The notes beneath the pieces were generated by a model. The model made no database searches, was not told the DNA's origin, and was given only the letters and a program-made list of their open reading frames with translations. Below are positions 1 to 60,911 of a DNA stretch of 64,000 bases, piece after piece (the first letter of the stretch is position 1; the number at the start of each line of letters is the position of its first letter). The DNA lies in assembly GCA_963752385.1 (NCBI GenBank), contig CAVVYL010000060.1, forward strand, positions 9,133 through 73,132, given 5' to 3'. Source of the DNA: an uncultured Acidimicrobiia bacterium. Lineage in GTDB: Bacteria; Acidobacteriota; Terriglobia; Versatilivoradales; Versatilivoraceae. The translations under genes and the position numbers were made by a program.

Positions 1-576
1 CTGTTGAGCCACAAGCTAGGTGGCCCGAGTGTGTTTCCTCCTCAACCTGCAGCCGTTTTTGCAGACCACTTCATCGAGGGAGGTTTCAATCAGTGGCCCA
101 CGAGCGTAGGCGAGGATCGTTACCGCCGCGGACTCTACACGTTTTACAAACGGACACTGGTGTATCCGACCTTTGCTACTTTTGACGGGCCAGATCGCAC
201 CGTGTGCACTGTGAAGCGGACACGTTCCAACACCCCGCTGCAAGCTCTCGACACGTTAAACGACCCGGTATTCTTTGAAGCGGCGGGCAGCTTGGCACAG
301 CGTCTTCTGACCGAGGCTCACGGCGACGTTAGCGACCGTCTCGCGTATGCGTTCCGGGTTGTCCTCGCTCGCAAGCCCACCACGGATGAGACACAGCGTC
401 TGCAGGATTTCTACCGGAAGATGCGCACGAAATACCAGACGGCGGCGGAGGCCGAAAAAGTCGTGGCAGCGGCGTTCCCGGGTCGAAAGCCGCGGGCAGA
501 CAAGATCGAGTTGCCCGCCTGGATCATGGTCGCCAATGCCTTGCTGAACCTTGACGAAGCCGTAACCCGGGAGTAA
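1..576 (+). CDS. DUF1553 (PSD1-family) protein, C-terminal part; 5' end lies outside the window
   Basis: ORF 4..576. The C-terminal region has the same motif pattern as the intact DUF1553 protein at 20610..23114 (…RRSLY.F..R....P..A.FD.PD...C..R..SNT..QAL..LND…). Confidence 0.65.
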   Translation: MLSHKLGGPSVFPPQPAAVFADHFIEGGFNQWPTSVGEDRYRRGLYTFYKRTLVYPTFATFDGPDRTVCTVKRTRSNTPLQALDTLNDPVFFEAAGSLAQRLLTEAHGDVSDRLAYAFRVVLARKPTTDETQRLQDFYRKMRTKYQTAAEAEKVVAAAFPGRKPRADKIELPAWIMVANALLNLDEAVTRE

Positions 577-870
577 TTCAGCCACTCCTTGACCGAATTG
601 TGAACTTCGTCGCCACCTGGTGGAACCAGGCTCGTGGGGCGCTACGCATGATTTGTCCCGCCTTGGCAAGGGGGACGCCGCGCTGTTTGCGGCAGGGGGT
701 CGAGCCACCGACGTGAAACTAGAACAACGTTTACTTTCGAGCCTCGGTTCACAACAGATTCCGATGAGAAACTTACCTCCGGTCGAGCCAAGGAGAAGTT
801 ATCCGATCCTCGATTGACGAGGGAACATGCTCCTTGGGCTCCTGCCAGAGGCCGGTTTTTGGGGAGAACG

Positions 871-2315
871 ATGATGAATAGTTACGAAGCAGCGCAGCAG
901 ATCACGAGACGGCACTTCTTCCGTTCCGCAGGAGTCAGCGTTGGCGCAATCGCGTTTGCCTCGCTGATGAATCGGGATCTTTTCGGAGCCGGGGTTGGTC
1001 CCAGGCGTGGAAAGAGTTCCCCTCAAGGGCTTGCACTTTCCAGCCAAAGCAAAGAGCATTATTTTCCTCTGTCAGGATGGCGCGCCGTCGCAGCTGGATC
1101 TCTTCGACTACAAACCCAAATTGCAGCAGTATCACGGAACACCCGTACCGGAAGAGCTGGTGAAGGGCGAGCGGTTCGCCTTCCTGTCAGGCCGGCCTCA
1201 GCTACTCGGGCCGCAATTCAAATTCGATCGCTACGGGCAGACGGGGACGTATGTTTCGGATTTGCTGCCTCAGATTGCGGGGATCGTCGATGAGACCGCT
1301 TTCGTGTACTCGCTGACGACTGACCAATTCAACCACACTCCGGCTCAGCTGAAGCTTTTCACCGGGCATGAGCGCTCGGGGCGTCCTTCGATGGGGTCCT
1401 GGCTCACCTATGGAATCGGCAGCGAGAACCAGGACCTTCCCGGTTTTGTGGTCTTGGCCTCTGGCCGCGGGACACGCTGCGGCTCCGCCTGCCACGGCTC
1501 AGGCTTCCTGCCAACGCGTTATCAGGGAGTTCCTTTTCGCTCGGGCGGTGACCCGGTGCTTTTTCTGTCGAATCCGGAAGGTGTCTCCAGCGAGGTTCGG
1601 CGCGATTCGTTAGACGTCATTCGCGACCTGAATCAGTTGAAACTGAAAAGCCAGGGTGATTCCGAGATTGAGACTCGCATTGCTTCCTATGAAATGGCCT
1701 ACCGAATGCAAACGAGTGTCCCAGACCTGATGGATATCTCCAAGGAGCCTCAGTCGATGCATGAGATGTATGGTACCGAGCCTGGGCAAGAGGAGCTTTG
1801 CGAATAACTGCCTTCTGGCGCGGCGGCTTGTTGAACGGGGCGTTCGCTTTGTTCAGCTGATGCATGGCGAGTGGGACCACCACGGTGGCACGCGCACCAG
1901 TCTAAGGCGGGACCTGCCGAAGCGCTGCCAGGAAGTCGATCGAGCCAGCGCTGCACTCATTAGAGATCTCAAGCAGCGAGGAATGCTCGACGAAACGCTT
2001 GTAATTTGGGGCGGCGAGTTTGGGCGCACACCGATGCTACAGGGCGAGCCCGACGATCCCAACGTCGGGCGCGACCACCACCGCACTTTCACCCTGTGGC
2101 TCTGCGGAGGCGGTGTCAAGGCTGGCGCTCGGTTGGGACAAACGGATGAGGTTGGCTATCGCGTCGCCAACGATCCAGTTACGGTGCATGACCTGCAGGC
2201 CACGATTCTCCACCTGATGGGCGTCGATCACACCAAGCTGACCTTCAAGTTCCAGGGTCGCGACTACCGGTTGACGGATGTACACGGTCAGATCCTAAAG
2301 CCAATTCTAAGCTGA
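871..2315 (+). pseudogene. DUF1501 domain protein (Tat signal, sulfatase-like fold) broken by two frameshifts
   Basis: Three ORF pieces in three frames (814..1293, 995..1807, 1761..2315) together are collinear with the intact DUF1501 paralog at 23104..24513: Tat motif RRHFFRSAG, then …[23 protein letters not shown]…, then …[17 protein letters not shown]…HTKLTF…. Frame switches fall near 960-1040 and 1785-1800. The ATG at 871 is preceded by a GGGGAGAA ribosome-binding site. Confidence 0.65.
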
Positions 2316-4716: not shown

Positions 4717-7700
4717 CTAGAAGAAGAATCGAAGGGCAAACTGGATGTAGCGCGGTGGACGGGCAGCCACCACCTGCCCGAAGCGCGCGTTGACCTGTGC
4801 GCCGGAAGGGTCGAACCGCGCATTGTTATCCACGGCCAGGTACTGCGTGTGATTGAAGGCATTGTAGAATTCGCTGCGGAATTCCAGATACCGCGCCTCG
4901 CTCCACAAGGGAAACTTCTTGGCGATGTTAATGTCCCAGTTGTTAAATCCGGGGCCGCGGAACAGATCGCGGGCTGCATTGCCAAACGAGCCTTGGGCCG
5001 GACGGCCGAAAGCGTCTGTGTTGAACCAGCGATCGAAACTCTTGCTATCAACGAGGGGGCTGGCCAGCAGATTCACTCGCGCAAAGCCGCTGTCTCCGCC
5101 GCCCGTGATGTCTGCGTTATCGGTCGTGCTGTAGTTGATTCCCGAGGGGCCACCGCTAGCGAAACGTAGTGATTCCAGAAAGTTGCCAGTTGTCCAGCAC
5201 TCCCTTGACAAATGCGTTGTTCCAGCGGCTGCTGGCTTTCGGCAGATCCCAGAGGTAGTTCAACGACAACATGTGGGTTTGGTCGAAGCCCAGCCGGCCG
5301 TACATCCAGGAACTGATGGGCAAGTACGCGGGCAACCCACCGCCATCGCCGTCGGTGAGTCCCATGGCCTTGGACCAAGTGTAGGACACTCCGATCTGGG
5401 GCCCACTGGTGAATCGCCGGTTCAGTGAGACCTGCAACGAGTTGTAGTTGGCGATCCCGGGATGATCAATGTACTTGATGCCGGCATAGCCGCTGTATGG
5501 GCGTAGAAAGTTCTCCGGCAATGCCAGCCCGGTCGTGGGATCGACATTCGCCGGATTGAAACGGGCACCCGGAGCGATCGTGTTGAGGTCGCGGTTCTGG
5601 AGCAGATGCCTGGAAGTATTGCCCACATAAGACACATCCATCACGCTATTACTCCCCAACTGATGCTGAATACCCAAGCTGTAGCTGTAAACCGTGGCGA
5701 CCGGCGGGTCCAGCTCCAGCGCGCTGACCAGCGTCGGGAAAAGCACTCCCTGAGATTGCAGCAACGTGTCCATCGTACCGTAGAAGATCTGCGGCTGGAA
5801 CGTCACCGGCACATTCTGCGTGATCTCCCAAAGGAAGTTTCCGGAAGTCAGCGCCGTTTGCTTGGTAGAGGCAAATCCACCACGAATGGCCGTCTTGCCG
5901 CTGCCGAACACGTCGTAGGCAAACCCAAAACGTGGCGCCACCTGAAGCGACGGTCGTTCACGGAACCCGTCTGGATAGCTGGTGTCACTCGACAGCACCA
6001 TCCCGTTGACCGGGTCGCCGCTATTGGGCACATAAGCGCCGATGTAGGGTGCCGGGAAGATTTGTCCTGAAATCGGGTCCCTGGCCACCCGGCTCCCACT
6101 CGCGTCCAAAGCGGGCCCGTAAAATGCGGGGGCCCTGGCTGGATCAAAACGCTCAAGCACCAGCGCAGCCCCCTCCGTGCGGCCGCGCAGCAGCCAAGGT
6201 GAGAAAGTGGAAAACCGCACGCCGTAACTCAGCGTCAGCTTGCGCGTGGCTTTCCACGTGTCCTGGGCGAAGAACTCGAAGACATTGTTCTTAGCCTTGT
6301 GCAGGTTGCGTTTGTTGGTCTCGGAGTATTGCCGGAACGTGCCCAGAGCCGCGTTGGCGTAGGCGTAGCCTGTGTCGCCGAGATTGTTGGGATCACGACC
6401 AAAATCGAAGCTTCCTGACTGGGGGGCGTTGGCTCGAGGCCCTTCGCTGGCCCAACCCCACTCGGCGTAGATGCCGAACTTCGGGTTGTGGCTGCCCTTG
6501 GCCCAGCTGATGTTATTCGATAGGTTCACCCGGTGATCTCCAGCATCAATGGGGAACCGCGTGTCGTAGTTGACGCTCGCCGCGCCGGGAACCCCGCCAA
6601 AACCCATCTGCGGAATCAGGCCCAGCGGATTGGCTGCTGGGAAGAGTTGTCCCAGGTTGTAACCTACCGTGGAACCCTGAACAGGACCATAGTCGCTGTC
6701 GGAATCCAGATGGCCGAATTCTCCCAGTCCACGGATGCCGATGTTGAACTCGTTCACAAGGCTGGGACTGAAGACCCGCGTGTATCCCACCTGTGCGCTG
6801 CTGTCGGTAAACAGATAACGGTGAATGAACAGAGGCGCGCCGCCGCCCCAACCTGCGCCTGGCTCAAAACCAAAGGTGTCGGTCCTCCAGCGCCGGCCGC
6901 GGATGAAAATGGAGTCCTTGGTGGTCAGATTGAAATCCAGGCGGAGTACCTGGGCCAACTTAGGAACGTCAAGGCTATCCTCCCATTCGAAGTTGTAATT
7001 GCCACCCGTGAGGTTACGATCCAGTCGGTTGGGCAGGGGAAAGACATTCAGCAACGCTTGGCCATTGCGGTTGATTCGATTGGCCGGGATGATATTGTTT
7101 GTGAATTGCTGTCCCGTCTCAGGATCGATGATCGGCACTAGTTGACCATTGAGATCGAGCGTCTGCGAAAAGTCGCCCGCTCGCTCGCGTTCGGTCGGCA
7201 AGGTCACCTGACGCAAACCAGTCGGCTGCTTAACACCCCAATCTTCATGCGCAAAAAAGAAGAAGATCTTGTCTTTGTTCTTGTTGAACTTGTTCGGAAT
7301 GTAGGCGGGCCCACCAACAGTAAATCCCCAGTTGCTGTGCCTGTAGATCGGCTTCGGCTGCCCCGAACGGTTGTTGAAGAAGTTATTAGCATTGAAATTC
7401 TCGTGCCGCTTAAACCAATAGGCATTGCCATGGAAATCCTTCGTGCCTGACTTGGTGACCAGGTTAACCACTGCTCCCGGGTTGCGCCCATACTCAGCCG
7501 CGTAATTGGTGAGCACCGCCTTCATTTCCGAAACGGAGTCAATCCCCGTGGTTTCATTAAACAAACCGACAATGTCTGCATCACCGCCCGGCTGCCCGTC
7601 CAGCGAAAAATTGTTGAAGTAGCTCCGCACGCCTTGAATATTCGGGGTGAAGGTTCCAAACTGGCCGCCCAGCGACTGGTTGCCAAACTGCAAGGCGCCG

Positions 7701-8266
7701 GCTCCTGAAGCCGAGTCTTCCTGCGCGCCCCAGGGAACAAACACTGACTGGCTAACCCCCGGCAAGGTTCGGAGCAAGCTCAACGGGTCGCGACCCTTGG
7801 CAATCATCAATTCGAGCTGGGTAGCGGTGAGCACGCCCGAGTGCTCGGCACTCTCCGTGCTAACCAATTCGCCAGTCGAGGTGACGGAGACGGTTTGAGT
7901 GACTTCCCCCAGCTCCATTGAAATCGAACCGAGGCCCAGGCGCTGGTTGGAGGTCAGACCCAACCCCTTTTGCTCATGTCGCTTGAAGCCGGCTTTCTCG
8001 ACAATCACGGTGTAGATCCCTGGCTGGACGGAATCAAAGACAAAGACTCCAGAGTCGTTGGTGACCCCCGAGCGGGCTACCTCGGTGGCTTCACTTTTTA
8101 GCGTCACGGTGGCGCCAGGAACAATGGCCCCGGAAGTATCGATCACAGTTCCAGTTACGGCACCAGTGATCGTCTGGGCCAAGGCACTTCCCGAGACCAG
8201 CGAAACAAGTAGTATCCCCAACAGCCCGAGGAAGACACCGATTTCTCTCTTTTTCCAGGCCTCCAT
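4717..8266 (-). pseudogene. TonB-dependent receptor with carboxypeptidase-regulatory-like N-terminal domain; frameshift near the 3' end
   Basis: ORF 5156..8266 (1036 aa) has a signal peptide, a CarbopepD_reg-like N-terminus (…TGAVTGTVIDTSGAIVPGATVTL…), plug and barrel. It stops at …WQLSGITTFR*. The barrel C-terminus, ending …RYIQFALRFFF, continues in another frame as ORF 4717..5211. The frame switch is at about 5155-5165. A strong AGGAGGG ribosome-binding site sits before the ATG at 8266. Confidence 0.7.
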
Positions 8267-8595
8267 CAGATCATCCCTCCTTAGAGTTTGCTAGCAGGCT
8301 ATCAGACAGCTTGGCAAGCGGTACGTCCGATTGGAATAATGTGAATACACACGACACAAACTACTGGTTTTCTTGATGTTGACCATGGTAGGACAGGGTC
8401 TTCTTGCATGTCAAGTAAATTTGGTTGAAATCTGTCTGACAACCAGATTAGAATAGGCCTCCGTCTCGCTGGATCGCCCGGAGGCTCCTTCAGAAAACAT
8501 CGTCCCAATGTGACTGTCTCGTGGCCGCTCTTCATTGAGCGGCAACTGACAAGCTGGCGGAGCGCTCCGCTTTGTCTCAATCGAATCCAAGGCCG

Positions 8596-9663
8596 ATGAA
8601 CCAGCTCTTGCGCAATCAAACTCATGGAGCCGTCGGCTGCATCGTGGCTACTGCTCCTGGAAAGGTGATCCTTTTCGGTGAACACGCCATCAATCGCGGA
8701 CAGCCGGCATTGGCGGCCAGTGTCGGATTATGGGCGCGCTGCCGTATCTGCCTTCGAAGCGAGCCAGGGAATGTGTTCCTCAGCGGAACTAACCAGCAGG
8801 CAGTCTCTCAGAAATCGATTCTCGACCTGACGCGCCAGGTTGACCTTGCGCGCAGCCAAGGCAACTATGAGTCCATTCGCCAACTGGCTGCTGAAGACTA
8901 TTTCGCCCCCGCCAAGTACATTCTGGGGTCAGCGCTGGGGGAGCAGTTGCCGGACGGATTCTCGGTGGAGTGGGAAAGCGAGATTCCCGCTTCCTCCGGG
9001 CTAGGGTCTGGCGGAGCAGCGTTTGCGGCCCTTGTCACGGCGCTGAACGGGCTCCTGGTGAAGCCTGCAAGCTTCGAAGAACTCGCCGCCTGGGCCTACC
9101 GCGGTGACGTGGTTGCCCATGGAGGCGTGGCATCGGCCCTCGATACGCAAACGTCGCTCGTGGGCGGTATCATTCGGTTCGCAGGCCAAGGACTAGCGCA
9201 GGCAGTCCCCTGCGCCGAGGGTTTCTCGCTGGTGATTGGGAATACTGGTGTGGCGGCGTCCACCCGTGAAATCAACACGCGGGTACGCCACTGGCTGGAA
9301 GAGAAGCCGGCCAGTCGCCTGGCTTTCTTCGAAGCAATGGGGGCTTTGTCACGAGCTGCCTTGCCGCTCCTGAAAGCAGGCGATTGGAACGAGCTGGGTA
9401 GGCTGTTCAATTTGAACCAACTGGCGCTTGAGAAGATCGGCGTTTCCAGCCCTGAGATTGACCAGCTGATCGAAGCTGCCCGGGAGGCAGGTGCCTTGGG
9501 GGCAAAACTCTCGGGCTCCGGCGGCGGGGGCATCGTCATTGCGTTGGTCACTTCGGAGACACAGCAGCGAGTTGCCCGCGCCATCGTGGAAGCAGGCGGG
9601 ACGGCGCTGCTTCCCGAGATCGGGGAGCGTGGTGCCAACGTAATCGATCGGAGACAAATCTAG
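8596..9663 (+). CDS. GHMP kinase, mevalonate-kinase-like
   Basis: N-terminal APGKVILFGEHA motif, GLGSGGAAFAA phosphate-binding motif and C-terminal KLSGSGGGG motif. The ORF track starts at TTG 8572; the first in-frame ATG was taken as 8596 by codon-offset arithmetic, not a direct base count. Confidence 0.55.
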   Translation: MNQLLRNQTHGAVGCIVATAPGKVILFGEHAINRGQPALAASVGLWARCRICLRSEPGNVFLSGTNQQAVSQKSILDLTRQVDLARSQGNYESIRQLAAEDYFAPAKYILGSALGEQLPDGFSVEWESEIPASSGLGSGGAAFAALVTALNGLLVKPASFEELAAWAYRGDVVAHGGVASALDTQTSLVGGIIRFAGQGLAQAVPCAEGFSLVIGNTGVAASTREINTRVRHWLEEKPASRLAFFEAMGALSRAALPLLKAGDWNELGRLFNLNQLALEKIGVSSPEIDQLIEAAREAGALGAKLSGSGGGGIVIALVTSETQQRVARAIVEAGGTALLPEIGERGANVIDRRQI

Positions 9664-9717
9664 GGCGTCTCCAAGACTCGCCACGTGGCAGACCGTCGCG
9701 AGTGGAAGGGATTCTTC

Positions 9718-10392
9718 ATGAACTTCAAAATCATCGACCTGACCCACAAGCTTCTGCCGGGTGAAGAACAATACCCTGTCGAGGTCAAGCAACGAGGCAA
9801 GCCGCGCGAGACGCCAACCGGCGACATCATGCATGACGTTTACATGTGGTCGCATTCCGGAACTCATGTCGAGGTATCGCTTCACTTCTATGCAGGAGGC
9901 AAAGACACGTCAGATTTTCCACCGGAGACCTTCGTAGGATCAGCCATTCGTCTAGACTTCCGGCACAAGCAGACGAACGAGCCGATCACGCTGGCGGAGA
10001 TTCAGGCCGCCGGCGACGTTCGGGAAGGAGACATCGTTGTCCTCTGGGAGGGGCGAGACCATCTCTATCGCACCAAGGAATCCCACTCCCGCCCCTATCT
10101 CACCGAAGAGGCGGCGCGCTGGCTGGCACTCGAGAAGAAGATCAAGTTGCTGGGAACGGACTCTTCTGGATTTGAGGTGCGTGGCGTCAGCACGCATCCC
10201 AACCACCACCTGTTTTTCAAGGCGGGTGTTGACATCCCAGTTGTGGAATGCCTCTGCCGCCTGGATAAGATTCCCAGCCAGCGATTTTTCTTCGTTGGGT
10301 TGCCTATTCCCGCGAAAGGGCTAGATGCATCGCCGATCCGGGCCATTGCGCTGGACATCGAAGGATGTTGGCCATCGTTGCGTTTCGAATAG
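9718..10392 (+). CDS. cyclase-family protein (kynurenine-formamidase-like metal hydrolase)
   Basis: HSGTHVE (HxGTHxD-like) motif, about 224 aa. The ATG at 9718 lies inside the GTG-started ORF 9685..10392. Confidence 0.55.
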   Translation: MNFKIIDLTHKLLPGEEQYPVEVKQRGKPRETPTGDIMHDVYMWSHSGTHVEVSLHFYAGGKDTSDFPPETFVGSAIRLDFRHKQTNEPITLAEIQAAGDVREGDIVVLWEGRDHLYRTKESHSRPYLTEEAARWLALEKKIKLLGTDSSGFEVRGVSTHPNHHLFFKAGVDIPVVECLCRLDKIPSQRFFFVGLPIPAKGLDASPIRAIALDIEGCWPSLRFE

Positions 10393-10438
10393 CCGTTCGC
10401 ATTGCGGTCGTCGCTTCAACTTGGATTTGCGGGGCTCT

Positions 10439-12154
10439 ATGGTTCGAATCGGGTCGGCATTGTTCAACGCAGATCACACCCGCCTTGGAGACGAGTTGCT
10501 CCGGGCAGAGGCTGCTGGGATTGATTTTTTTCACTTTGATGTCTTTGACGGGTACTTTGTGCCCGACCAGGCGTTTCCGGCCCGAACAATCAAATGGCTG
10601 CGGCGGCTGACGAAGCTGCCGTTTGAGGTGCACCTGGCCGCCAACGATCCGGTTCGCTTCCTGCCCGCGTTGGCAGACGCTGGTGTGGACCTGGTATTTC
10701 TTCCAGCTGAGAGCGTCGCGCTGCTCTACGAAACCATCTTTACCGTCCGCGAACAGGGAATGAGGGTGGGGTTGTGTCTGGCTCTCGGCACTCCGCTGGC
10801 GCTGCTGGATTCCACGTTGCCGATGATTGACTCGGTGCTGCTGCTGGGGCGTGTCACGGGCGAGGGCAAGCGCGGCCGTGACTTCAATCGACTTGTGATT
10901 GAGCGTGTGCGCCAGGTGCGCCAGCGCAGCGATGTCGCGGGAGGCTTGATCGACGTCCAAGCCGCCGGAGGCCTCGAAATAGCAAATTGCGCCGAGGTCG
11001 TTCAGGCGGGGGCCACTTCTCTTCCCCTTGGCGCTGCTTTGCACCGGGAGGCTGACATGGCCCTCTTCGTGTCGCGACTTCGCCAGTGCATCGGGAAAGG
11101 ACTCGAGGACCTCGGGTCGCAGATCGTGGATCGAAGTGCCTCTCGCGATCTCCAAGCTGCAATCCTAGCGCCTGCCAATGCCGCCCGCGGGGCGGAAGCG
11201 CAGACCTTTAACGTCCTGGTGGCTTCGCGCTCCTTTGGCAAGAACTGCCCAGAGGTTCTGGAAAGGATGAAGGCTGCGGGATGTGCCTTCATGCCGAACG
11301 ACTATGATCTTGCGCCCAGTGAAAAAGATCTGCTCGCGCTCATTCCAGAAGCCGACGTCTTGATTTCAGGGACGGAGCCCGTGACCGCCCGCGTGATTGC
11401 TGCCGCACGACGCTTGAAAGTCATCTCGAGGCACGGCGTCGGATTCGAAAATATCGATCTGGCAGCGGCAAGGGAGCGCGGAATTCGCGTTGCGATTGCA
11501 GGTGGAGTCATTGCCGATTCGGTAGCTGACATGACCCTGGCGCTGCTGCTCGCCCTGGCTCGCCAGATTCCTCAGGGCAATGCGTCTGTGAAGCGGGGTC
11601 AATGGCAGCGCTTTGTCGGACCTGAGCTCCGCGGCAAGACGCTCGGCTTGGTGGGACTGGGGCAAATTGGGCGATCCGTGTGTGTTCGAGCCAAGGGGTT
11701 CGGCATGCGGCTGGTTGCCTATGACTTGTGTCCCGATCGAGCTTTCGCAGCTTCGTGGGGGGTGGAGTATCGCGCTCTCGATGAGTTGCTCGGCACGGCA
11801 GACTTCGTCTCACTCCATTTGCCGGTCACCGATGAAACCCGACACCTGATCAACTGTGAGAGGCTGAATCGTATGAAGCGGGGCAGCTTTCTAATCAACA
11901 CCGCGCGGGGCGAGTTGGTCGACGAGGCGGCCCTCTATGAAGTTCTCAGCAGCGGCCACCTGGCCGGAGCCGCTGCCGACGTGTTCAGCACCGAGCCCCC
12001 CGGTGAAAACCGGCTGCTTCAACTCGAGAATTTCGTGGCGATGCCTCACAGCGCCAGCCAGACTCCGGAGGGTTTGCGTCGGATGGGAGAGATAACGGCC
12101 GAGAACGCCCTGCGGGTCCTCCGGGGCCAAGAACCACTGTTTTTCGTCGCCTAG
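10439..12154 (+). CDS. fusion protein: ribulose-phosphate-3-epimerase-like (RPE/AlsE family) N-domain plus D-isomer-specific 2-hydroxyacid dehydrogenase (PGDH-like) C-domain
   Basis: N-half …[20 protein letters not shown]… is RPE-family. C-half …[12 protein letters not shown]…[14 protein letters not shown]…[11 protein letters not shown]…AAADVF… shows the 2-Hacid_dh NAD-binding and catalytic motifs. Both halves lie in one uninterrupted ORF starting at the ATG at 10439. Confidence 0.6.
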
Positions 12155-12158
12155 GGGC

Positions 12159-13652
12159 ATGATGACTCCAAAGATATCCCGGTTTCCGTCGGCTCCAGTG
12201 CGTTTCCGCCAGCGGCGGCTGCACTGCGTCCGCTCTGTTCTGGTTGGGTTGGCGATCCTGGTCGCGGCACTTCCTTGCTTAGCGCTGCCTCGTCTTAAGG
12301 TTAGCGGGAACCGGCGGTTCCTCGTCGCGGAGAATGGGGAGCCCTTCTTCTATCTGGGTGATACGGCCTGGGAGCTGTTCCATCGGCTCAATCGCGAAGA
12401 AGCGGAACGCTACCTGAAGGACCGCGCAAAAAAAGGGTTCACGGTCATCCAGGCGGTGGCGTTGGCGGAGCTGGATGGGCTGAATGATCCGAATCCTTAC
12501 GGTCACCGTCCTCTGGTGAACAATGATCCGACTCAGCCGGATGTCAGGGAAGGAAGGGACAACGACTACTGGGATCATGTGGACTTCATCGTCAGCAAGG
12601 GAGAATCTCTTGGACTCTACATTGGTTTTCTGCCGACCTGGGGTGACAAATGGAACAGACGGCAGGGAGCCGGTCCGGAAATCTTCAACCCTCAAAACGC
12701 AGCTGTGTATGGCACATGGCTAGGGCAGCGTTATCGGAGCTCTGCGAACATCATTTGGATTCTGGGCGGCGACCGGCCAGTGGAAAGCGACACCCATCGA
12801 GAAGTAATTCGCGCCATGGCGCAGGGCTTGCGCAAAGGGCATGGCGGTGCACACCTGGCGACGCTGCATCCGCCGGGAGGCGAGGGTTCCTCGCGCTGGT
12901 TCCACGAAGACGAGTGGCTGGATTTCAACATGCGCCAGAACGGTCATGTCACGGAGTTCAACCCGCGCTACGAAGCGACCCGAGCCGATTACGAACGCGT
13001 GCCTGTCAAGCCGGTGCTGGATGGGGAACCGATTTACGAAGACCACCCGATATCGTTCAAGGCCCAAGAGCTGGGCCATTCTGTGGCAGCCGACGTCCGG
13101 CGGCCGCTCTATTGGGACCTGTTCAGCGGCGCGTTCGGGCACACCTATGGCCATCACTCGGTTTGGCAAATGTGGCAGCCGGGCCGCAAGCCTGTCAACA
13201 GCCCGCTGATGCCGTGGTTTGAAGCGCTCGATCAGCTCGGCGCCAGCCAGATGCAGTACGGTCGCAGGCTCATCGAGTCGCGGCCCTTCCTGACACGAAT
13301 TCCGGACGACTCCGTGATTGTTCCTACGGATCCAGCCTCTTCCGTGCCTGGAGCAGGGCTGAAGCGCTTTGCCGCCACCCGCGATGCCGAGGGCAGCTTC
13401 GCTTTGGTTTATGCTCCAACCGGAAGGCCCTTTAAGGTGCGCATGGACAAGATCCGCGGCGCGCTCGTGAAGGCGTGGTGGTACAACCCGCGCGACGGCG
13501 AATCCACGGTGATCGGAGAATTCTCCAGCGCCGGGCAGCGAGAGTTCGTTCCCCCGAGCTTGGGAGAGAACATGGACTGGGTGCTCGTTTTAGACGATGC
13601 TGCCCGGGGTTTCCCTGCGCCGGGAAAAGGCAAAGCCAAGAAGACGCCGTAG
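12159..13652 (+). CDS. glycoside hydrolase family 140-like (DUF4038) with C-terminal collagen-binding-like domain
   Basis: …[43 protein letters not shown]… is the characteristic DUF4038/GH140 N-terminus. It has a signal-like N-terminus and is 497 aa. Confidence 0.55.
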
Positions 13653-13774
13653 TCCACTAGGTGGCGACGAAGTTCACAATTCGGTCAAGTTTGTAGTCCC
13701 GCCTTCAGCCGGCCCTGGTCATCGCCGCCTGAAGGCGAAGGAGCCCTTGCTCCGTGAACCAGGAGAGGAATGAT

Positions 13775-14791
13775 ATGCAGGTTGCCGTGATTCAAGCGCC
13801 CCGTCAGATGCAACTGGAATCCTGGACAATACCCCAGCCCGGGCAGGGCGAGGTTTTGGTTTCAGTGCGAGCCGTCGGGGTCTGTGCTGGGGACCTGTAC
13901 ATTTATCAAGGGAAAAATCCTTATGCCAGCTATCCCGCCGTCGGAGGGCATGAGATCGCCGGCGTGATCGCAAGGGTTGGGGCCGGTGTCGCGGGTTTCG
14001 AGCCTGCGGAGCGTGTTGTCGTCGAACCGTTCATAGGTTGCGGGACCTGCTATCCGTGCCGGGTGGGCAAGTCCAATTGCTGCGCAAGGCTTGAGATCAT
14101 CGGTGTCCACCGGCCGGGAGGGTTCGCTGAATTCCTGACCGTACCCGCGCACAATCTTCATCGGATTCCCGACGGGCTTTCTTTCTCCATGGCCAGTTTT
14201 GCCGAGCCTGTGGCCATCGGTGTCCAGGCCTGCCGTCGAGGACAAGTGGCGAAGGGTGAATACGTGCTCATCCTGGGGTGTGGGCCAATTGGCCTGGCTC
14301 TCGTCGAAGTGGCAAGACAACGAGGCGCCCGGGTTGTTGCCACTGACATCCGGCCTTCTCGGCTCGAGATCGCCAAGCAGCTCGGAGCAGAGACGCTTGT
14401 GGCAGACGACCACTTGTTGTCCAGGGTCCTTGATCAGACCAACGGAGAGGGAGCCCCGGTGGTGATCGAGGCGACGGGAGACAGCAAAGCCATCGAGCTG
14501 ACGGTAGAGCTGGTTGCCGCCGGAGGGAGGATCGTGATTGTCGGGCTCATCAAAAGAGGCATCGGCGTGACTTTCCAGGGTCTGGATTTCACGCGCAAAG
14601 AGATGACCATTGTGGGATCCCGAGCGTCGGTGAGCTGTTTTCCTGAATCGCTGGAGCTTCTGGCGAGTGGGGCAGTCCAGTATCCGAAGGTGGCGACCGA
14701 GTTTACTCTTTCGGAGGCGCCCCGGGTGCTGGCTCAGATGGCCCAAGATCCAGCAGCGGTCCACAAGAGTCTGTTGGTCGTGGAGACTTGA
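13775..14791 (+). CDS. zinc-dependent alcohol/polyol dehydrogenase (MDR family)
   Basis: GHEIAG…, structural-Zn Cys cluster CGTCYPCRVGKSNCC and GCGPIGL Rossmann motif. The ATG at 13775 is preceded by AGGAGAGG. Confidence 0.75.
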   Translation: MQVAVIQAPRQMQLESWTIPQPGQGEVLVSVRAVGVCAGDLYIYQGKNPYASYPAVGGHEIAGVIARVGAGVAGFEPAERVVVEPFIGCGTCYPCRVGKSNCCARLEIIGVHRPGGFAEFLTVPAHNLHRIPDGLSFSMASFAEPVAIGVQACRRGQVAKGEYVLILGCGPIGLALVEVARQRGARVVATDIRPSRLEIAKQLGAETLVADDHLLSRVLDQTNGEGAPVVIEATGDSKAIELTVELVAAGGRIVIVGLIKRGIGVTFQGLDFTRKEMTIVGSRASVSCFPESLELLASGAVQYPKVATEFTLSEAPRVLAQMAQDPAAVHKSLLVVET

Positions 14792-14886: not shown

Positions 14887-15636
14887 ATGTTGAAGGCGGT
14901 TTCACGAGATCTAACTTTGGTGGACCAAGCTCTGAACCAGCTCGAGGGCTTAATCCTGGACGGAAGTTATGCACCTGGCAATCGTCTTCCTTCCGAAAAA
15001 GAGATGTCTTTGAAGCTCGGGGTCAGTCGTTCGGTGGTTCGAGAGGCCATCCATAGTCTGATCGCGAAAGGGCTGGTTGAGACGCGCACGGGGTCGGGGA
15101 TTTATGTTCGCGACCTGGGTTCACACCTCGTTACGGAGCCGATCAATCTGTTGCTTCGGTCACGCTGGTTCAACACGGACGAGATTCTGGAAGTCCGGGA
15201 GGTTCTCGAAATCAAAATTGCAGGCTTGGCGGCAGAGCGCGCCCAGGCCCGCGACCTCGAAGACTTGCAGGCGACCATTGATGCCCTCGGCAATCCAAAA
15301 CTGGCCCCGGCGGAGTACGCCCAAATCGACGTCGCGTTTCACAATCGCCTGGCGGCAGCGGCGGGCAATCCGTTATTTACGGTACTCGCGAACTCAATTA
15401 ACGACGTCATGATCAATATCCGGTTGCGAGCATTCAGGGTTGACGGCCCCTTGGTCGTGGAGCGCTCAGCCTTCTATCACGGGCACATCCTCGAGAAGGT
15501 ACGCGCACATGACGTCGAAGGTGCCCGCCGTGCCATGGAAGAGCATCTGGCCGAGGCTCGGGACACGTTACGTCGAGCGGATGCCACTTTTGTCAGAACC
15601 GCACGGCAGGTTGAACTGGAAAGGCCCAGCAATTGA
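14887..15636 (+). CDS. GntR-family transcriptional regulator (FadR/FCD subfamily)
   Basis: N-terminal wHTH …LPSEKEMSLKLGVSRSVVREAIHSLIAKGLVETRTGSGIYV… plus an all-helical FCD-like C-terminus. Confidence 0.75.
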   Translation: MLKAVSRDLTLVDQALNQLEGLILDGSYAPGNRLPSEKEMSLKLGVSRSVVREAIHSLIAKGLVETRTGSGIYVRDLGSHLVTEPINLLLRSRWFNTDEILEVREVLEIKIAGLAAERAQARDLEDLQATIDALGNPKLAPAEYAQIDVAFHNRLAAAAGNPLFTVLANSINDVMINIRLRAFRVDGPLVVERSAFYHGHILEKVRAHDVEGARRAMEEHLAEARDTLRRADATFVRTARQVELERPSN

Positions 15637-17371: not shown

Positions 17372-18340
17372 ATGAAAATCGCTGTAATTGGCGCCGGAGC
17401 AATGGGGAGCGTCATGGGTGGACTGCTAGCCAAAGCGGGAAACCAGGTGACGCTGATTGAGGTCTCGCAGCAAGTTGTCGAAGCCATCAATAGCAGAGGG
17501 TTGCGCCTTGAAGCCAAGTCCGGCGCCACGGAGACCATCCATGTGCCCGCGACCGCTGAGTCCAGCCGCGTGGGCATCGTTGACCTGGTTCTCGTGTTCG
17601 TGAAGTGCTACCACACAGAAGCGGCAGTACACGCGGCATCGCCTCTGATTGGTCCCGACACGATGGTGTTGTCTCTGCAGAATGGTTGGGGTAACGGGCC
17701 AAAGATCAGCGCCATCGTGGGCGAGCAGCGATTGTTGCTGGGAGTGTGTTACCACAGCGCGACTGTTGCAGGACCAGGACACGTCCGGCACGTAGGGCAG
17801 GGTATGACGTTTATCGGAGAGTTGAACGGCAAAATCACTTCCCGGCTGAAACGTATCACCGAGACGTTTGAGAAGGCCGGGATTGAGGTGACCGCCACGC
17901 CTGCTGTCCTCAAGGAGATTTGGTCCAAGCTGGCGCTGAACGCTTGCACGCTGCCGACCTCAGCCCTGCTCCGTTTGTTCTCCCCTCAACTGATTCAACA
18001 CCAGAGCATGCTCGAACTGATGCGTGCCCTGCTGGGAGAGGTTGTCGCGGTTGCCCAGGCCCAACAGATCCCCCTCGACTTCGATGAGCGCTGGGATGTG
18101 ATCACCGGACTGTTGAAGGGCCTGGCGCCAAGTGCCAAGTCTTCTATGTGTCAAGATGTGGAGAAGGGCCGGCAGACCGAGATCGAAGTGATTAACGGCG
18201 CGATCGTGGAGTCGGGTCGGCGGTTGGGCATCGGCACCCCTTACAACGACGTGATGGTGTGGCTGGTGAAAGCATTGGAAGAAACCTTTCAGCAGCCTGG
18301 GTCGCCAGATCTTTCGACGGTGGAGTCCCTGCGCGCTTAA
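17372..18340 (+). CDS. 2-dehydropantoate 2-reductase family (PanE/ApbA) oxidoreductase
   Basis: MKIAVIGAGAMGS Rossmann start and the KLALNA / C-terminal ApbA_C pattern. AAGGAG ribosome-binding site before the ATG at 17372. Confidence 0.7.
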   Translation: MKIAVIGAGAMGSVMGGLLAKAGNQVTLIEVSQQVVEAINSRGLRLEAKSGATETIHVPATAESSRVGIVDLVLVFVKCYHTEAAVHAASPLIGPDTMVLSLQNGWGNGPKISAIVGEQRLLLGVCYHSATVAGPGHVRHVGQGMTFIGELNGKITSRLKRITETFEKAGIEVTATPAVLKEIWSKLALNACTLPTSALLRLFSPQLIQHQSMLELMRALLGEVVAVAQAQQIPLDFDERWDVITGLLKGLAPSAKSSMCQDVEKGRQTEIEVINGAIVESGRRLGIGTPYNDVMVWLVKALEETFQQPGSPDLSTVESLRA

Positions 18341-18417
18341 CGCGTGCGGTATTGACTGCCCGGAGTCCATTGCGTCCTGGTCAGATTCTCACTGTAGTCA
18401 GATGGAGCAGCTATTCA

Positions 18418-19194
18418 ATGACTCGAATTCGCTTCTTTGGTGTGGCTGCCTACGAACTGACCACCGGCAGGGGCCAGCGAATTCTGGTTGACCCGTTTCT
18501 GGATGAGAACCCGGGCAGTCCCGTGAAATCTCACCAGCTCGAGAAGGTCGATCTGATCGTTGTCTCTCATGCCGCGGCCGATCACCTGGGAGACACCGAA
18601 GCCATTGCTCGGCGCACTGGCGCACCGGTTGTGTGTGGAGGCGAGGTCAAAGCCTACCTAACGGCGCGCGGTGTTCCTGCCACCCAGATCCGTGCAACCA
18701 CTTGGGGAATCGCCGTCGAGGTGGCTGGAATCCGCGTGCAGCCGCTGGAATGCCATCACTGGTCGCAGATTCAGATGCCCGACGGCACGTTTGCTTCAGG
18801 AGTGCCCATGGCATTTGTCATTTACACTGACCCTGGGGTCCGCTTTTACCACTACGGTGATACGGCGATCTTCAGCGATATGAAACTGCAGAGAGAGCTC
18901 TATCAGCCCACTATCGGATGTATTGGAATAGCCAACCCTCTTGAGATTCTGGATCGTAACCCCATGCCGGGGCAGATGCTAACCGCCGAGATGAGTCCGC
19001 GCGAAGGGGCGCTGGCTGCAGAATGGCTTGGGCTCGAGACCGTCCTGCCCTGTCACTACATCAATCCGGACTGCGATCAAGTTCGCGAGTTCAACCTTCT
19101 GTTGGAACAAGCCGGGCGGGACGGACGAAAAGTCCCGCGGTCGTTGGTGCTGAGGCCGGGAGAAGTCTTTGCCGCCCCTCCAGGCGTGATTTGA
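18418..19194 (+). CDS. MBL-fold metallo-hydrolase (UlaG/UPF0173-like)
   Basis: …RILVDPFLDENPG…DLIVVSHAAADHLGDT… (HxHxDH-like motif), about 258 aa. The ATG was placed at 18418 inside the longer ORF 18259..19194 by approximate count. Confidence 0.55.
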   Translation: MTRIRFFGVAAYELTTGRGQRILVDPFLDENPGSPVKSHQLEKVDLIVVSHAAADHLGDTEAIARRTGAPVVCGGEVKAYLTARGVPATQIRATTWGIAVEVAGIRVQPLECHHWSQIQMPDGTFASGVPMAFVIYTDPGVRFYHYGDTAIFSDMKLQRELYQPTIGCIGIANPLEILDRNPMPGQMLTAEMSPREGALAAEWLGLETVLPCHYINPDCDQVREFNLLLEQAGRDGRKVPRSLVLRPGEVFAAPPGVI

Positions 19195-19235
19195 CCGGCA
19201 AGTTGCTCTCATGCGAGGTTGAGAAGGGATCATTG

Positions 19236-19370
19236 ATGCAAGCCGCCGTTATTCAGGCTCCGCTGCGGATGGGTATGGAGTCGCGCCCGCCGCCGCTCCT
19301 GGGTCCCGGTGAAGTGTTGGTTGGGGTCAAGTCGGTGGGTGTCTGTGCGGGCCCGATAGTCTGGTCGCAG
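19236..19370 (+). pseudogene. N-terminal remnant (about 45 aa) of a Zn-dependent alcohol dehydrogenase paralog
   Basis: MQAAVIQAPLRMGMESRPPPLLGPGEVLVGVKSVGVCAG parallels the N-terminus of the ADH at 13775 (MQVAVIQAPRQMQLESWTIPQPGQGEVLVSVRAVGVCAG), then diverges to nonsense. Confidence 0.4.
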
Positions 19371-19437
19371 CTGGCACTCGAGAGCGCCGTCTTTTGCTGG
19401 ACCCGGCCACTCCCACATTCGTCAACAGAGGTGATTC

Positions 19438-20367
19438 ATGCGGCTCTACAGCTTTGAACGTCATGGGGAACAGCGCATCGGTGCCGAACACGACAACCAG
19501 TTAGTGGATCTTAGAGCGGCGGCCGAGGCTTTGGAGCGCGAGCAACGCTCGGCGGGCGGCGCCCAGGCATTCTCTGCAGGCATGCTGGGCCTGATCCGGG
19601 CCGGTGACACCGGCATGAACGCGGCCAGGCGGGTCTTTCAATACGCGCTGGGACGTGACAGGTCCAATCCGCCACTAATGATCCCGCTGGGCGAGGTGCG
19701 CCTGTTGGCTCCGATTCCCCGGCCAGGCAAAATCCTTTGCTCCGGCATCAATTACCTGAGTCATAAGGACGAGAACCCCAACGCCGTTCTGCCTGAATCT
19801 CCTTTCTTCTTCTCGAAGCTGCCTTCCGCGGTGATCGGTCCAGGAGCACCGATTGTCCATCCCAGGGCCACGCGACAGATGGATTACGAGGTGGAGCTCG
19901 CCGTGGTCATTGGCAAGCCCATGCATCACACTCCTGAGGAGGCAGTGATGGCAAGCATTGCCGGCTATACGATCTTGCACGACGTTTCCGCTCGCGATGT
20001 CCAATTCAAAGACAACCAGATCACTCTGGGAAAGAATTTTGACACCTTCGCTCCCATGGGACCGTGCCTCGTCACGACCGATGAGCCAATCGAACCGGGC
20101 AACGTGCGTCTTCGTACGCTGCTCAATGGCCGCGTGATGCAGGACGGCTCCACACGCGACTGGCTATTCCCACTCCCCAGGCTGCTTTCGCTCCTCTCAC
20201 AGGTGATGACTCTGGAGCCGGGTGACGTTGTGAGCACGGGGACTCCTGCCGGAGTCGGTGTCTTTCGCCAGCCGCCGGTCTTCCTCAAGCCAGGTGACCA
20301 GGTTGTTCTGGAGATCGAGAAGATCGGACGGTTGGAGAATCCGGTCGTTGGGCCGGCACAGACTTAA
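19438..20367 (+). CDS. fumarylacetoacetate hydrolase (FAH) family protein
   Basis: …ILCSGINYLSHKDE…DYEVELAVVIGK…GTPAGVG… are FAH-family motifs. RBS-like AGAGGTGA before the ATG. Confidence 0.75.
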   Translation: MRLYSFERHGEQRIGAEHDNQLVDLRAAAEALEREQRSAGGAQAFSAGMLGLIRAGDTGMNAARRVFQYALGRDRSNPPLMIPLGEVRLLAPIPRPGKILCSGINYLSHKDENPNAVLPESPFFFSKLPSAVIGPGAPIVHPRATRQMDYEVELAVVIGKPMHHTPEEAVMASIAGYTILHDVSARDVQFKDNQITLGKNFDTFAPMGPCLVTTDEPIEPGNVRLRTLLNGRVMQDGSTRDWLFPLPRLLSLLSQVMTLEPGDVVSTGTPAGVGVFRQPPVFLKPGDQVVLEIEKIGRLENPVVGPAQT

Positions 20368-20609
20368 GGCTAGCGCCGGGTGCCTTGCATGCGAGCTACG
20401 GGAAGGCAAGATGATACACGGCCCAGAATTTTTCTTGCCGGTTTGTCGCGTCTGGGCTTATCAGTCGTATCAGCCATGGATCTTGATCCGATTTGGGATG
20501 ATCATTTTGAAGGAAGAATTCTTAGGAAACGCCTATAGTTGACACGCAATGTGGTAATGCAACAATAAGCTGTTCACTTTGTGCCTTGTGGCTCAATGGC
20601 GGACCACGC

Positions 20610-30089: not shown

Positions 30090-30155
30090 TAGAGGCAGGG
30101 ACCCCGAGTTAGTTCCTGCCCATTTCGAGTGACTGTACCTGAAAGAGGAAAGGCT

Positions 30156-54410: not shown

Positions 54411-55175
54411 TCAACTTTGCCCCGGTGCTAAAGCGGCTTTCATCTGTGAGAGCGCCAGCTCGTTTACTTTTCTTGCCTGCTCGATTTGCTCCAGGATCAG
54501 CTTCCTCTTGAGGCCGTCTTCTTCCTGCTGTCTGGTGAGCACATACATCTCTAAGCTGCTGCCACCCTGACGCAACTTGTCTCTCAGGTCAATTCGCTTC
54601 TGTGCCTTCTCGTCGAGTTGCTCCAGATCCGCCAGTGCCTTGTCGCGTATCCTGGCGCTATCTTTCAACAAGATCAAACTTGCGAGAGAAAGCCGATCGC
54701 TCGCGGAAAGAGCTGGGTCGATCATCAACTCTTTGATCTCGCTTCGTACCTCCGGAGATAACCGGACTAACGCTTGTGGGGCCGTCACTAGCGCTCGGAC
54801 TGATTCAACTAACCGCTTTACCCCCACATCGAAACTGGTCGCCAGGTCGATCCGCTGCAACCCTATCAACTGATACACCATGTCTTTGGGAACGACGGTC
54901 CGTCGGATTTCGACGGGTAGGACCGGTTTGTTGGCTTCCTGCGCAATGTCGAGTTCCTTCCGCACGTTGTCCGATGCAGCGGCATTGGGTGAGAGGGCAA
55001 CCAAAACGACGTCGGCAGCTTCGATAGCATCGACGATTTGCCTACGCCACTTGGCGCCGCCCAGGATGTCTTCACGATCGATCCAAACTGCGACCGCTGC
55101 GGCCTCAAGCTCCCGGACCAGCCTCTCAATAATCTGCGTGTCCTGTCGTGAATAGCTTATGAACACATGTCCCAT
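54411..55175 (-). CDS. TIR-domain protein with C-terminal coiled-coil region
   Basis: N-terminal …VFISYSRQD… and …VLVALSPNAAASDNVRKELDIAQ… (the SxN…S…EL motif with the conserved Glu). The C-terminal 120 aa are heptad-like and charged. ATG 55175, alternative TTG 55187. Confidence 0.65.
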   Translation of the reverse strand: MGHVFISYSRQDTQIIERLVRELEAAAVAVWIDREDILGGAKWRRQIVDAIEAADVVLVALSPNAAASDNVRKELDIAQEANKPVLPVEIRRTVVPKDMVYQLIGLQRIDLATSFDVGVKRLVESVRALVTAPQALVRLSPEVRSEIKELMIDPALSASDRLSLASLILLKDSARIRDKALADLEQLDEKAQKRIDLRDKLRQGGSSLEMYVLTRQQEEDGLKRKLILEQIEQARKVNELALSQMKAALAPGQS

Positions 55176-55363
55176 TCCGGTCTCCAATCAATGCTGGAAG
55201 ACTTGACGACTCCGGTTCAGCCTGCCCGCATTTTTAGGCAGGGCGGCTGCAACAGGCGGGCTAGCCCGTCCTGTTAAGTGGGCCGCAAGCAAGTCGCAGC
55301 AGTCGCAAGGGCCTTAAGTCCAGGTTCAACAGAGTGTGATCGAGTGGGATACGACGGCAAGAC

Positions 55364-60798: not shown

Positions 60799-60911
60799 TT
60801 ACACTCCTCGGCTCGATAGACGAACGCTTACGACGCCTTAGATTGGGAGCTTGCTGAAAATGTACCAGTGTCAAAGAAACAAAGAGACCTTATCTTCCCT
60901 TCATCGGCCGG

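Follow-up and report, generated by a model that had tools for sequence, protein, structure and literature searches.

The 64-kb window analysed here (64,000 nucleotides of contig CAVVYL010000060.1, positions 9,133 to 73,132) carries a single gene in which a domain of the ribulose-phosphate 3-epimerase (RPE) family is joined to a complete D-isomer-specific 2-hydroxyacid dehydrogenase (2HADH). The fused open reading frame (ORF) is a genuine gene, conserved among soil bacteria, and no assembly artefact. Judged by its predicted active-site residues, the N-terminal domain is RPE-like and not a canonical epimerase. The gene lies among homologues of D-apiose genes, and the chances are about even that its product is a bifunctional enzyme of an ApnO-independent pathway for apionate or branched sugar acids, in which the RPE-like domain is not an epimerase. 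The fusion is best classed as an uncharacterised protein, mis-annotated in public databases, that lies within the RPE and 2HADH families and within apiose catabolic clusters.

The ORF listing gives an open + strand frame without interruption from 10325 to 12154. The supported start is the ATG at 10439, which lies 46 nt past the stop codon of the upstream cyclase gene, gives a protein of 571 aa, and agrees with the starts of homologues and with the choice of public gene callers. Three Pfam domains were identified in this one ORF, all far over their gathering scores: Ribul_P_3_epim (PF00834; residues 4-201, E = 3.6e-37, 128.2 bits against a gathering score of 21.1), 2-Hacid_dh (PF00389; residues 270-568, E = 2.9e-26, 92 bits) and 2-Hacid_dh_C (PF02826; residues 367-539, E = 2.6e-60, 203 bits). 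A first-pass annotation, made from the letters of the window, had proposed just such a single-ORF fusion, and the scan bears it out; the doubt raised there, that the N-terminal domain might prove not to be RPE-like, is answered by the PF00834 match over profile positions 2-197 of 198. The motifs it had quoted are likewise present, with FHFDVFDG at residues 31-38, GxGxxG at 406-411 within the segment [11 protein letters not shown] at 403-413, and the triad Arg490, Glu519 and His537 in NTARG (487-491), DVFSTEP (514-520) and MPHSAS (535-540). The linker holds neither a stop codon nor a frameshift, so that, as stated there, no frameshift is needed to read the two domains together.

The exact 571-aa sequence is already public on a 144-kb contig, and 571-aa members of the query's cluster (at least 90% identical) lie on contigs of 157 kb and 503 kb from other assemblies. 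One member of the same 90% cluster carries the label Terriglobia bacterium. A search of a collection of 5.8 billion proteins, of the kind that had been suggested, yielded at least 120 clusters (90% identity) in which all three Pfam domains lie in one protein of about 540-600 aa; among these 120 best-scoring clusters, identity to the query was 61-98%. The fused frame was also found in 30 of the retrieved loci. The linker is unconserved in sequence among the homologues and varies from 15 to 75 aa (median 31), and it is in frame every time. Species-representative genomes with the fusion belong to the Chthonomonadaceae and Abditibacteriaceae (Armatimonadota), to a Chloroflexota metagenome-assembled genome (MAG) labelled Oscillochloris and to a Tepidisphaerales MAG, and the relatives span four phyla, including Armatimonadota, Chloroflexota and Planctomycetota. 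An assembly or sequencing error that deleted a stop codon between two genes is exceedingly improbable. Split-gene versions are known in other lineages, and two further genes of the window appear frameshifted, although these have no bearing on the fusion ORF; set against this are the 571-aa version on three independent long contigs (one exact, two with members at least 90% identical), and the 30 fused loci and at least 120 clusters with linkers that vary yet remain in frame. Because at least 120 clusters hold all three domains in one protein, the merge is not a sequencing error. The artefact, which the first-pass annotation had named as one way in which its proposal could fail, was rejected on this conservation across clusters, loci and contigs.

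No described enzyme with the RPE plus 2HADH architecture was found in public annotations, among NCBIfam equivalogs, among PDB chains or in literature searches, which agrees with the earlier remark that this is not a described bifunctional enzyme. Public names for the fusion proteins are "hypothetical protein", "ribulose-phosphate 3-epimerase" or "D-3-phosphoglycerate dehydrogenase" only. Literature searches for apiose with a GHMP or mevalonate kinase, or for RPE with 2HADH, GHMP and cyclase, returned nothing relevant.

Based on sequence matches to the PDB, the closest solved structures of the N-terminal domain are RPEs, with 2FLI leading (1.6e-29) and the most distant RPE at 1e-11. The domain belongs to PF00834, and the fusion misses all NCBIfam equivalog cut-offs for Rpe and AlsE, scoring 124 against 212.6 for TIGR01163 (rpe), 123 against 165 for NF004076 and 69.5 against 271 for NF007266 (AlsE). 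Residues were mapped by alignment to the S. pyogenes RPE 2FLI, to which 1TQJ and 5UMF were added for Ala176. We take the metal ligands of the S. pyogenes enzyme to be His34, Asp36, His67 and Asp176, with Asp36 and Asp176 as its two acid/base residues; these roles were reportedly described by Akana et al. in 2006. The query shares with the family the (beta/alpha)8 fold, the HxD and H metal ligands, and the GG and G backbone phosphate-binding positions of strands 7 and 8. It differs in that only His32, Asp34 and His65 remain of the His-Asp-His-Asp set and its two acid/base Asp residues. The second Asp is replaced by Ala176, which occurs in 121/121 close homologues and in 93 of the 94 fused and split relatives, where Asp is never found. 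The two-base 1,1-proton transfer of RPE is not open to an enzyme that has one base only.

Other parts of the site have also changed. Three active-site Met residues of RPE are replaced, by Phe36, Ala67 and Leu136 in the query (Phe, Ala or Gly, and Leu among the relatives), and the PGFGGQ loop gives way to a longer R-V-T-G-E-G-x-R-G-R loop, of which residues 140-144 have a predicted local distance difference test score (pLDDT) below 50 in the AlphaFold2 model, which suggests a flexible lid. Ala176, Gln174, Arg138, Glu142, Arg145 and Arg147 are invariant in the 121 close homologues, while Asn10, His13, His32, Asp34, Asp37, Glu63, His65, Glu91, Arg138 and Glu142 do not vary among 34 fused proteins and 55 that are split or stand alone. 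Newly fixed in comparison with RPE are Arg138 and Glu142 (94/94 relatives) and Gln174 (93/94). The invariance of both the kept and the new residues speaks for a remodelled site that is still active; the additional Arg residues hint at a substrate with one more anionic group. The query also differs from Rpe and AlsE in being fused to, or adjoining, a 2HADH in a sugar-acid cluster. A mechanistic precedent is offered by KGPDC and HPS of the OMPDC suprafamily, which are likewise ribulose-phosphate-binding barrels. These enzymes use a metal-stabilised enediolate and one proton donor, for decarboxylation in KGPDC and for formaldehyde aldol chemistry in HPS. They belong to another family, and no significant sequence match to them was seen here.

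The C-terminal domain was identified as a D-2-hydroxyacid dehydrogenase by both Pfam domains, the GxGxxG motif with Gly406, Gly408 and Gly411 invariant, and the Arg-Glu-His triad, all of which it shares with SerA, PdxB and GhrB. Asp429, at the end of the strand that follows GxGxxG, suggests a preference for NAD rather than NADP. The best PDB matches were M. tuberculosis SerA (1.8e-62, about 40% identity) and glyoxylate reductases, with 43% identity to Thermus TT0316, which places the domain about equally near SerA-type and glyoxylate/hydroxypyruvate-reductase-type enzymes. No equivalog cut-off was reached by the fusion: TIGR01327 (PGDH) gave 279.8 against 454 and covered only profile positions 28-304 of 525, NF008759 gave 188 against 404, and the NCBIfam glyoxylate reductase profile gave 249 bits, also under its cut-off. 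The domain is very probably not a SerA, since these scores are too low and the ACT and ASB regulatory domains are lacking. It further differs from SerA, PdxB and GhrB in the family-specific Ser263-Arg264-Ser265 and His332 (Ser263, Ser265 and His332 invariant, Arg264 at least 90%, across the fused homologues) and in the N-terminal RPE-like domain. A canonical Rpe plus SerA fusion was thus tried and rejected on the NCBIfam cut-offs, the absent Asp176 and the genomic context. AlphaFold2, run on a 50-sequence alignment, gave a mean pLDDT of 86.8 and a predicted template modelling score of 0.65, with linker residues 230-252 below 50. The top Foldseek matches of the fusion were 2CUK, 2DBQ and 5AOV; no PDB chain covering both halves was found (TMq up to 0.51, with the dehydrogenase half matched only).

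The origin of the fusion was traced through its unfused relatives. A query with the N-terminal domain returned many stand-alone proteins, 220-240 aa long and 54-79% identical to it (one of them, P0253, on a 1.2-kb contig that gives no gene context), and a metagenome scan with a profile of such proteins added 80 further loci. In 24 loci the 2HADH is encoded by a gene of its own that comes directly after the RPE-like gene, in the same orientation and in the order of the fusion. In L016 (an L number designates a related locus) the 2HADH ATG lies 11 nt before the TGA stop of the RPE-like gene, and in alignments the two proteins correspond to query residues 2-226 (RPE-like) and 257-570 (2HADH). In a neighbour-joining tree of 94 N-terminal domains the fused forms made up one large clade and a separate small lineage (L013, L014), both nested among split forms; a few unfused members lie inside the fused clade. 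At 50% clustering only two full-length fused representatives remained, and the fused form is therefore a fairly narrow clade. From the split adjacent genes in the same order and the nesting in the tree it follows that the ORF is a fusion of neighbouring operon genes. Such a fusion is in turn independent evidence for two activities working together.

D-apiose is a signature branched sugar of plant rhamnogalacturonan-II (RG-II) and of apiogalacturonans. In the passages cited here, an oxidative route is described that runs through ApsD, ApnL, ApnO, OiaK and OiaC (PMC11747546) and ends with a RuBisCO-like decarboxylase or transcarboxylase (PMC11747546; PMC12994016); ApnO is said there to oxidise D-apionate at C2 and to migrate the hydroxymethyl group (PMC12994016). 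The corresponding part of PMC13001218 describes a non-oxidative route with ApsI, AplK and the AptAB transketolase, and the cited portion of a preprint (bioRxiv 10.64898/2026.03.13.711244) names BT1012, the founding member of GH140, as a beta-D-apiosidase of RG-II degradation.

Related loci keep the order (SDR), GHMP kinase, cyclase, RPE-like, 2HADH, in which the SDR is KduD-like. Neighbours were counted in the 30 loci that have 5 kb or more of sequence on either side. The GHMP kinase and the cyclase-family hydrolase each occurred in 29 of these, the 2HADH in 28 and the SDR in 26. A Zn-dependent dehydrogenase and a GntR regulator were each found in 18, an ApnL homologue in 17, a Gfo/Idh/MocA dehydrogenase (its substrate specificity being predicted) in 16, and GH140 in 11. 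ApnL or GH140 was present in 23/30 loci, typically adjoining the module and on the same strand. In L011, L016 and L050 the module is surrounded by a Gfo/Idh/MocA dehydrogenase, ApnL, a Zn-dependent dehydrogenase and a GntR regulator, to which GH140 is added in L016 and L050 and an ABC transporter in L011. By their predicted gene content, L011 and L016 would read like complete apiose-utilisation units. The fused homologue of L013 and L014 is more distant (47% identity) and keeps the order SDR, GHMP, cyclase, fusion; it is flanked by an FAD oxidoreductase, extra SDRs and an SBP_bac_1 ABC transporter, without ApnL, Gfo or GH140, which may mean another input substrate.

In the window, the ApnL homologue (- strand) and a TonB-type receptor are followed on the + strand, with short gaps, by the kinase, cyclase, fusion and GH140 genes. 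The + strand run continues with genes for a Zn-dependent dehydrogenase, a GntR/FCD regulator and GH5-like, ketopantoate-reductase-like (KPR), MBL and FAH proteins. The kinase passes TIGR00549 (206.6 against a cut-off of 163) and its best PDB matches are all mevalonate kinases. The cyclase-family protein is nearest to 1R61, isatin hydrolases and kynurenine formamidases in the PDB. The GH140 gene product is a putative apiosidase whose match to the Apiosidase catalytic domain (PF13204) scores 385.9 bits over profile positions 2-319 of 320. Homologues of the ApnL protein carry precomputed Apionate_lact_N, M and C domains, though the Pfam-A scan gave no match for the protein itself. A Gfo/Idh/MocA dehydrogenase of the D-apiose 1-dehydrogenase type is absent from the 64-kb window. 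A scan for promoters and terminators gave no enrichment over shuffles, with only two promoter-like sites upstream of the kinase gene.

The families that act downstream on apionate were searched for in 943 kb of sequence comprising the window and the related loci (96 loci). Three E. coli proteins, PdxA (of the same family as ApnO), YgbK (DUF1537, like OiaK) and YgbL (class II aldolase decarboxylase), gave no tblastn match in this 943 kb, nor was a RuBisCO-type KDDE motif present, and none of the ApnO, OiaK or RuBisCO-like families appeared in the Pfam tables of the long loci or of the window ORFs; the search covered the contigs, and the enzymes could be encoded elsewhere in the genomes. Because these families were not found in the loci, the module holds the place of ApnO, OiaK and the RuBisCO-like OiaC/OiaX, the enzymes known to act downstream on apionate.

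D-apionate is a D-2-hydroxy acid whose quaternary C3 carries two hydroxymethyl arms. In the scheme we propose, GH140 would free apiose, and oxidation and delactonisation would give D-apionate. The mevalonate-kinase-like enzyme would phosphorylate the primary hydroxyl beside the tertiary carbinol; the substrate of mevalonate kinases, to which this kinase is nearest, is likewise a branched tertiary-carbinol hydroxy acid. The dehydrogenase probably acts before the RPE-like domain. Oxidation of the D-2-hydroxyl by the 2HADH domain would yield a 2-oxo acid, in the manner of PdxB on 4-phosphoerythronate and of ApnO in its first half-reaction. The resulting 2-oxo-3-hydroxy phosphate, a motif of the kind that RPE-type metal sites chelate, would be bound by the RPE-like domain on a divalent metal held by His32, Asp34 and His65. 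Because C3 carries no proton, only C-C chemistry would be possible there, and it is probably this, not epimerisation, that the RPE-like domain carries out. The step would proceed via an enediolate, with an ApnO-like hydroxymethyl migration, possibly followed by decarboxylation of a beta-keto acid; the alternatives for this step would be hydroxymethyl migration, deformylation, or decarboxylation after migration. Such chemistry would agree with a site that has lost one base and carries a small residue, Ala, at position 176. The RPE-like step would also pull forward the thermodynamically unfavourable oxidation. An NAD-linked oxidation of a 2-hydroxy acid being unfavourable, selection could plausibly have favoured a fusion that tethers the activity consuming its product. 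That oxidation is followed specifically by migration or decarboxylation is a good deal less certain than the general role and must be held as rather doubtful. The KPR-like enzyme of the window may, by way of speculation, act on the same 2-oxo acid, as 2-oxo-apionate resembles ketopantoate.

A functional analogue is proposed in ApnO (EC 1.1.1.421; PdxA family) with OiaK and OiaC/OiaX, where, according to the cited passages, ApnO stands downstream of ApnL and starts at C2 of D-apionate (PMC12994016; PMC11747546). It has no sequence relationship with the fusion, and the chemistry would here be divided between the 2HADH and the RPE-like barrel, probably on a phosphorylated substrate. The L-threonate/D-erythronate pathway (LtnD/DenD, OtnI, OtnK, OtnC; ygbJKLM of E. 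coli) is alike in leading from a 2-hydroxy to a 2-oxo and then a 3-oxo acid, with phosphorylation and decarboxylation. It differs in its DUF1537 kinase, where a GHMP kinase is found here, in the family used for the enediolate step, and in the branched substrate proposed here. Homologues of E. coli YgbM (OtnI, 2-oxo-tetronate isomerase) were identified at L042 6712-7086, L044 11710-12444 and L078 18967-19722, in each case adjoining split RPE-like and 2HADH genes.

A further and more tentative proposal, which we regard as possible, is that RPE-like proteins with a QxAGG motif, fused or stand-alone, form a new functional class of the RPE family. These would perform C-C chemistry (migration, deformylation or decarboxylation) on the quaternary C3 of phosphorylated 2-oxo-apionate. 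Along with the 2HADH, a cyclase-family hydrolase and an apionate kinase that resembles mevalonate kinases, they would make up a further D-apiose pathway, independent of ApnO and of RuBisCO-like proteins, in soil Acidobacteriota, Armatimonadota, Chloroflexota and Planctomycetota.

Other explanations of the N-terminal domain were weighed. The first-pass annotation had a phosphoketose 3-epimerisation feeding the dehydrogenase, and this part of its proposal was not supported. A ketose-phosphate 3-epimerase with an alternative second base, feeding or following the dehydrogenase, would account for the Pfam placement and for the three of four metal ligands and Asp34 that are kept, and the invariant His13, Glu142 or Gln174 could in principle serve as that base. 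Asp176 is nevertheless Ala in 93/94 relatives, the Met cushion and the phosphate loop are remodelled, every RPE and AlsE equivalog cut-off is missed, and the context is one of branched sugar-acid catabolism, where D-apionate has no proton at C3; an epimerase is accordingly quite improbable. Still less credence can be given to a pseudo-enzyme, that is, a non-catalytic ligand-binding or regulatory domain carried on the dehydrogenase. A key catalytic residue has been lost, as would be expected of one, but the remaining metal ligands and the new active-site residues are invariant among sequences only about 50% identical, and the domain is kept as a stand-alone gene in at least 24 loci. An invariant site in a conserved stand-alone gene therefore indicates selection on an active site.

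Two further readings accept an active site and change the chemistry or the substrate; each is unlikely, and we rank them alike. In one, the SDR or the Zn-dependent dehydrogenase would oxidise a hydroxymethyl arm after phosphorylation, the RPE-like domain would be a metal-dependent retro-aldolase releasing glyoxylate or hydroxypyruvate and a triose-phosphate enediolate, and the fused 2HADH would at once reduce the reactive 2-oxo acid in the manner of a glyoxylate/hydroxypyruvate reductase. This reading gives roles to the SDR (26/30 loci) and the Zn-dependent dehydrogenase (18/30), one retained base and a metal suit an aldolase, and the 2HADH is as near to glyoxylate/hydroxypyruvate reductases as to SerA (249 bits; 2CUK, 2DBQ, 5AOV). 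On the other side, oxidation suits the NAD-type Asp429 and the catabolic context better than reduction does, the scheme is as hypothetical as our own, and we know of no aldolase activity in the RPE family. In the other reading, the module acts on a sugar acid or lactone other than that of apiose, and its link with ApnL and GH140 reflects general plant-glycan islands. The GH5-like, KPR-like, MBL and FAH genes of the window cluster would suit this, as would the different flanks of L013 and L014 (FAD oxidoreductase, extra SDRs, a different ABC transporter) and the loci that lack both ApnL and GH140. It is opposed by the 23/30 loci with ApnL or GH140, typically adjoining on the same strand, and by the apiose-type genes that immediately flank the module in L011, L016 and L050.

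Several observations count against the apionate pathway that we prefer, in addition to the restriction of the enzyme search to contigs. The module occurs without ApnL or GH140 in 7/30 loci (e.g. L013, L014), because of which its substrate may be more general or a different sugar acid. NF049900 matches the ApnL homologue from end to end (2.2e-104), yet scores 350 bits against an equivalog cut-off of 750. The scheme gives the SDR, the Zn-dependent dehydrogenase and the cyclase-family hydrolase no role, and the substrate, the order of the steps and the RPE-like reaction are all inferred. As for the joint action of the two halves, L015, L029, L032 and L034 lie inside the fused clade without an adjacent 2HADH, no interdomain packing was defined in the AlphaFold2 model, which consists of two confident domains, and a physical channel between the domains, as modelled, is unsupported.

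The positions of the fusion gene, its predicted sites and the neighbouring genes are collected in Table 1.

Table 1. Features of the fusion gene and its neighbourhood in the window (sites within the fusion are predicted from alignments)
Feature	Position	Strand	Basis
D-apionate lactonase (ApnL) homologue, 704 aa	2324..4438	-	NF049900 full length; 50% identical to a protein with Apionate_lact_N, M, C
Mevalonate-kinase-like GHMP kinase	8572..9663	+	Pfam GHMP_kinases_N and GHMP_kinases_C; TIGR00549; PDB
Cyclase-family (PF04199) metal-dependent hydrolase, always immediately upstream of the RPE-like gene	9685..10392	+	Pfam, PDB matches
Fusion gene, RPE-like domain + linker + 2HADH domain, 571 aa + stop	10439..12154	+	ORF, Pfam, public protein matches
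RPE-family (beta/alpha)8-barrel domain, residues 4-201	10448..11041	+	Pfam PF00834, PDB matches
His32-x-Asp34, retained metal ligands and first catalytic Asp (His34/Asp36 of S. pyogenes RPE)	10532..10540	+	2FLI alignment; invariant in 94/94 relatives
His65, retained third metal ligand (His67 of S. pyogenes RPE)	10631..10633	+	2FLI alignment, 94-relative alignment
Remodelled beta6-alpha6 loop [11 protein letters not shown], residues 137-147, in place of the RPE phosphate loop (S/T)VNPGFGGQ	10847..10879	+	Alignments
Ala176 at the position of the second catalytic and metal-binding Asp176 of RPE; VDGG -> QAAGG	10964..10966	+	2FLI, 1TQJ, 5UMF alignment
Interdomain linker, residues 216-258	11084..11212	+	Unconserved in homologues; residues 230-252 pLDDT <50
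2HADH domain, residues 259-571	11213..12151	+	Pfam PF00389 and PF02826, PDB matches
NAD-binding GxGxxG, Gly406, Gly408, Gly411	11654..11671	+	Motif positions, fused-homologue alignment
Catalytic 2HADH triad Arg490, Glu519, His537	11906..12049	+	Motif positions; invariant in 50 fused homologues
GH140 apiosidase-like glycoside hydrolase	12159..13652	+	Pfam Apiosidase 2.5e-115 and Collagen_bind_2
Zn-dependent medium-chain dehydrogenase	13754..14791	+	Family profiles
GntR/FCD regulator	14887..15636	+	Pfam
KPR-like, MBL-fold hydrolase and FAH-family hydrolase trio	17372..20367	+	Family profiles; same trio in L018, L019, L066

Outside the cluster, a second GH140-like protein (DUF5060 and Collagen_bind_2) is encoded at 30129-32051 (+), 18 kb downstream; the same accessory domains were found in the GH140 proteins of L010 and L016. 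The two genes that appear frameshifted code for a DUF1501 protein and for the TonB-type outer-membrane receptor. The former is read from two overlapping ORFs (995-1807 and 1761-2315, +) that match profile positions 1-224 and 226-389, and looks frameshifted, either as a pseudogene or through a sequencing error; an intact paralogue lies at 23104-24513. The receptor (CarboxypepD_reg and OMP_b-brl_4) is likewise read from overlapping ORFs (5156-8266 and 4717-5211, -) matching profile positions 1-708 and 709-838. Gene pairs of PSCyt1/PSCyt2/PSD1 (DUF1549/DUF1553) and DUF1501 are located at 20586-24513 (+) and 4-2315 (+), and FG-GAP/ASPIC-UnbV proteins at 28323-30089. These families are associated with Acidobacteriota and Planctomycetota, which fits the Terriglobia label of the cluster member; the window probably comes from a Terriglobia MAG. 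A TIR-domain protein (54411-55187, -) and a CHAT-domain protein with sensor TPR repeats (56349-58712, -) lie in the GC-richest region of the window (0.65-0.67 against about 0.58), possibly an island for defence or signalling. At 59356-63675, four ORFs in a row (237-415 aa) gave no Pfam match at E <= 1e-5.

The names ribulose-phosphate 3-epimerase and phosphoglycerate dehydrogenase, as attached to the fused and stand-alone relatives, are very probably incorrect, and metabolic reconstructions of MAGs that relied on them would be distorted. The fusion has a reasonable chance of marking a new pathway and a new chemistry for the RPE fold. If so, a conserved module of five activities would replace the ApnO, OiaK and RuBisCO-like steps in several abundant soil phyla and form a new catabolic route, with a new type of reaction for the RPE family and a sugar-acid role for mevalonate-kinase-like and cyclase-family proteins.

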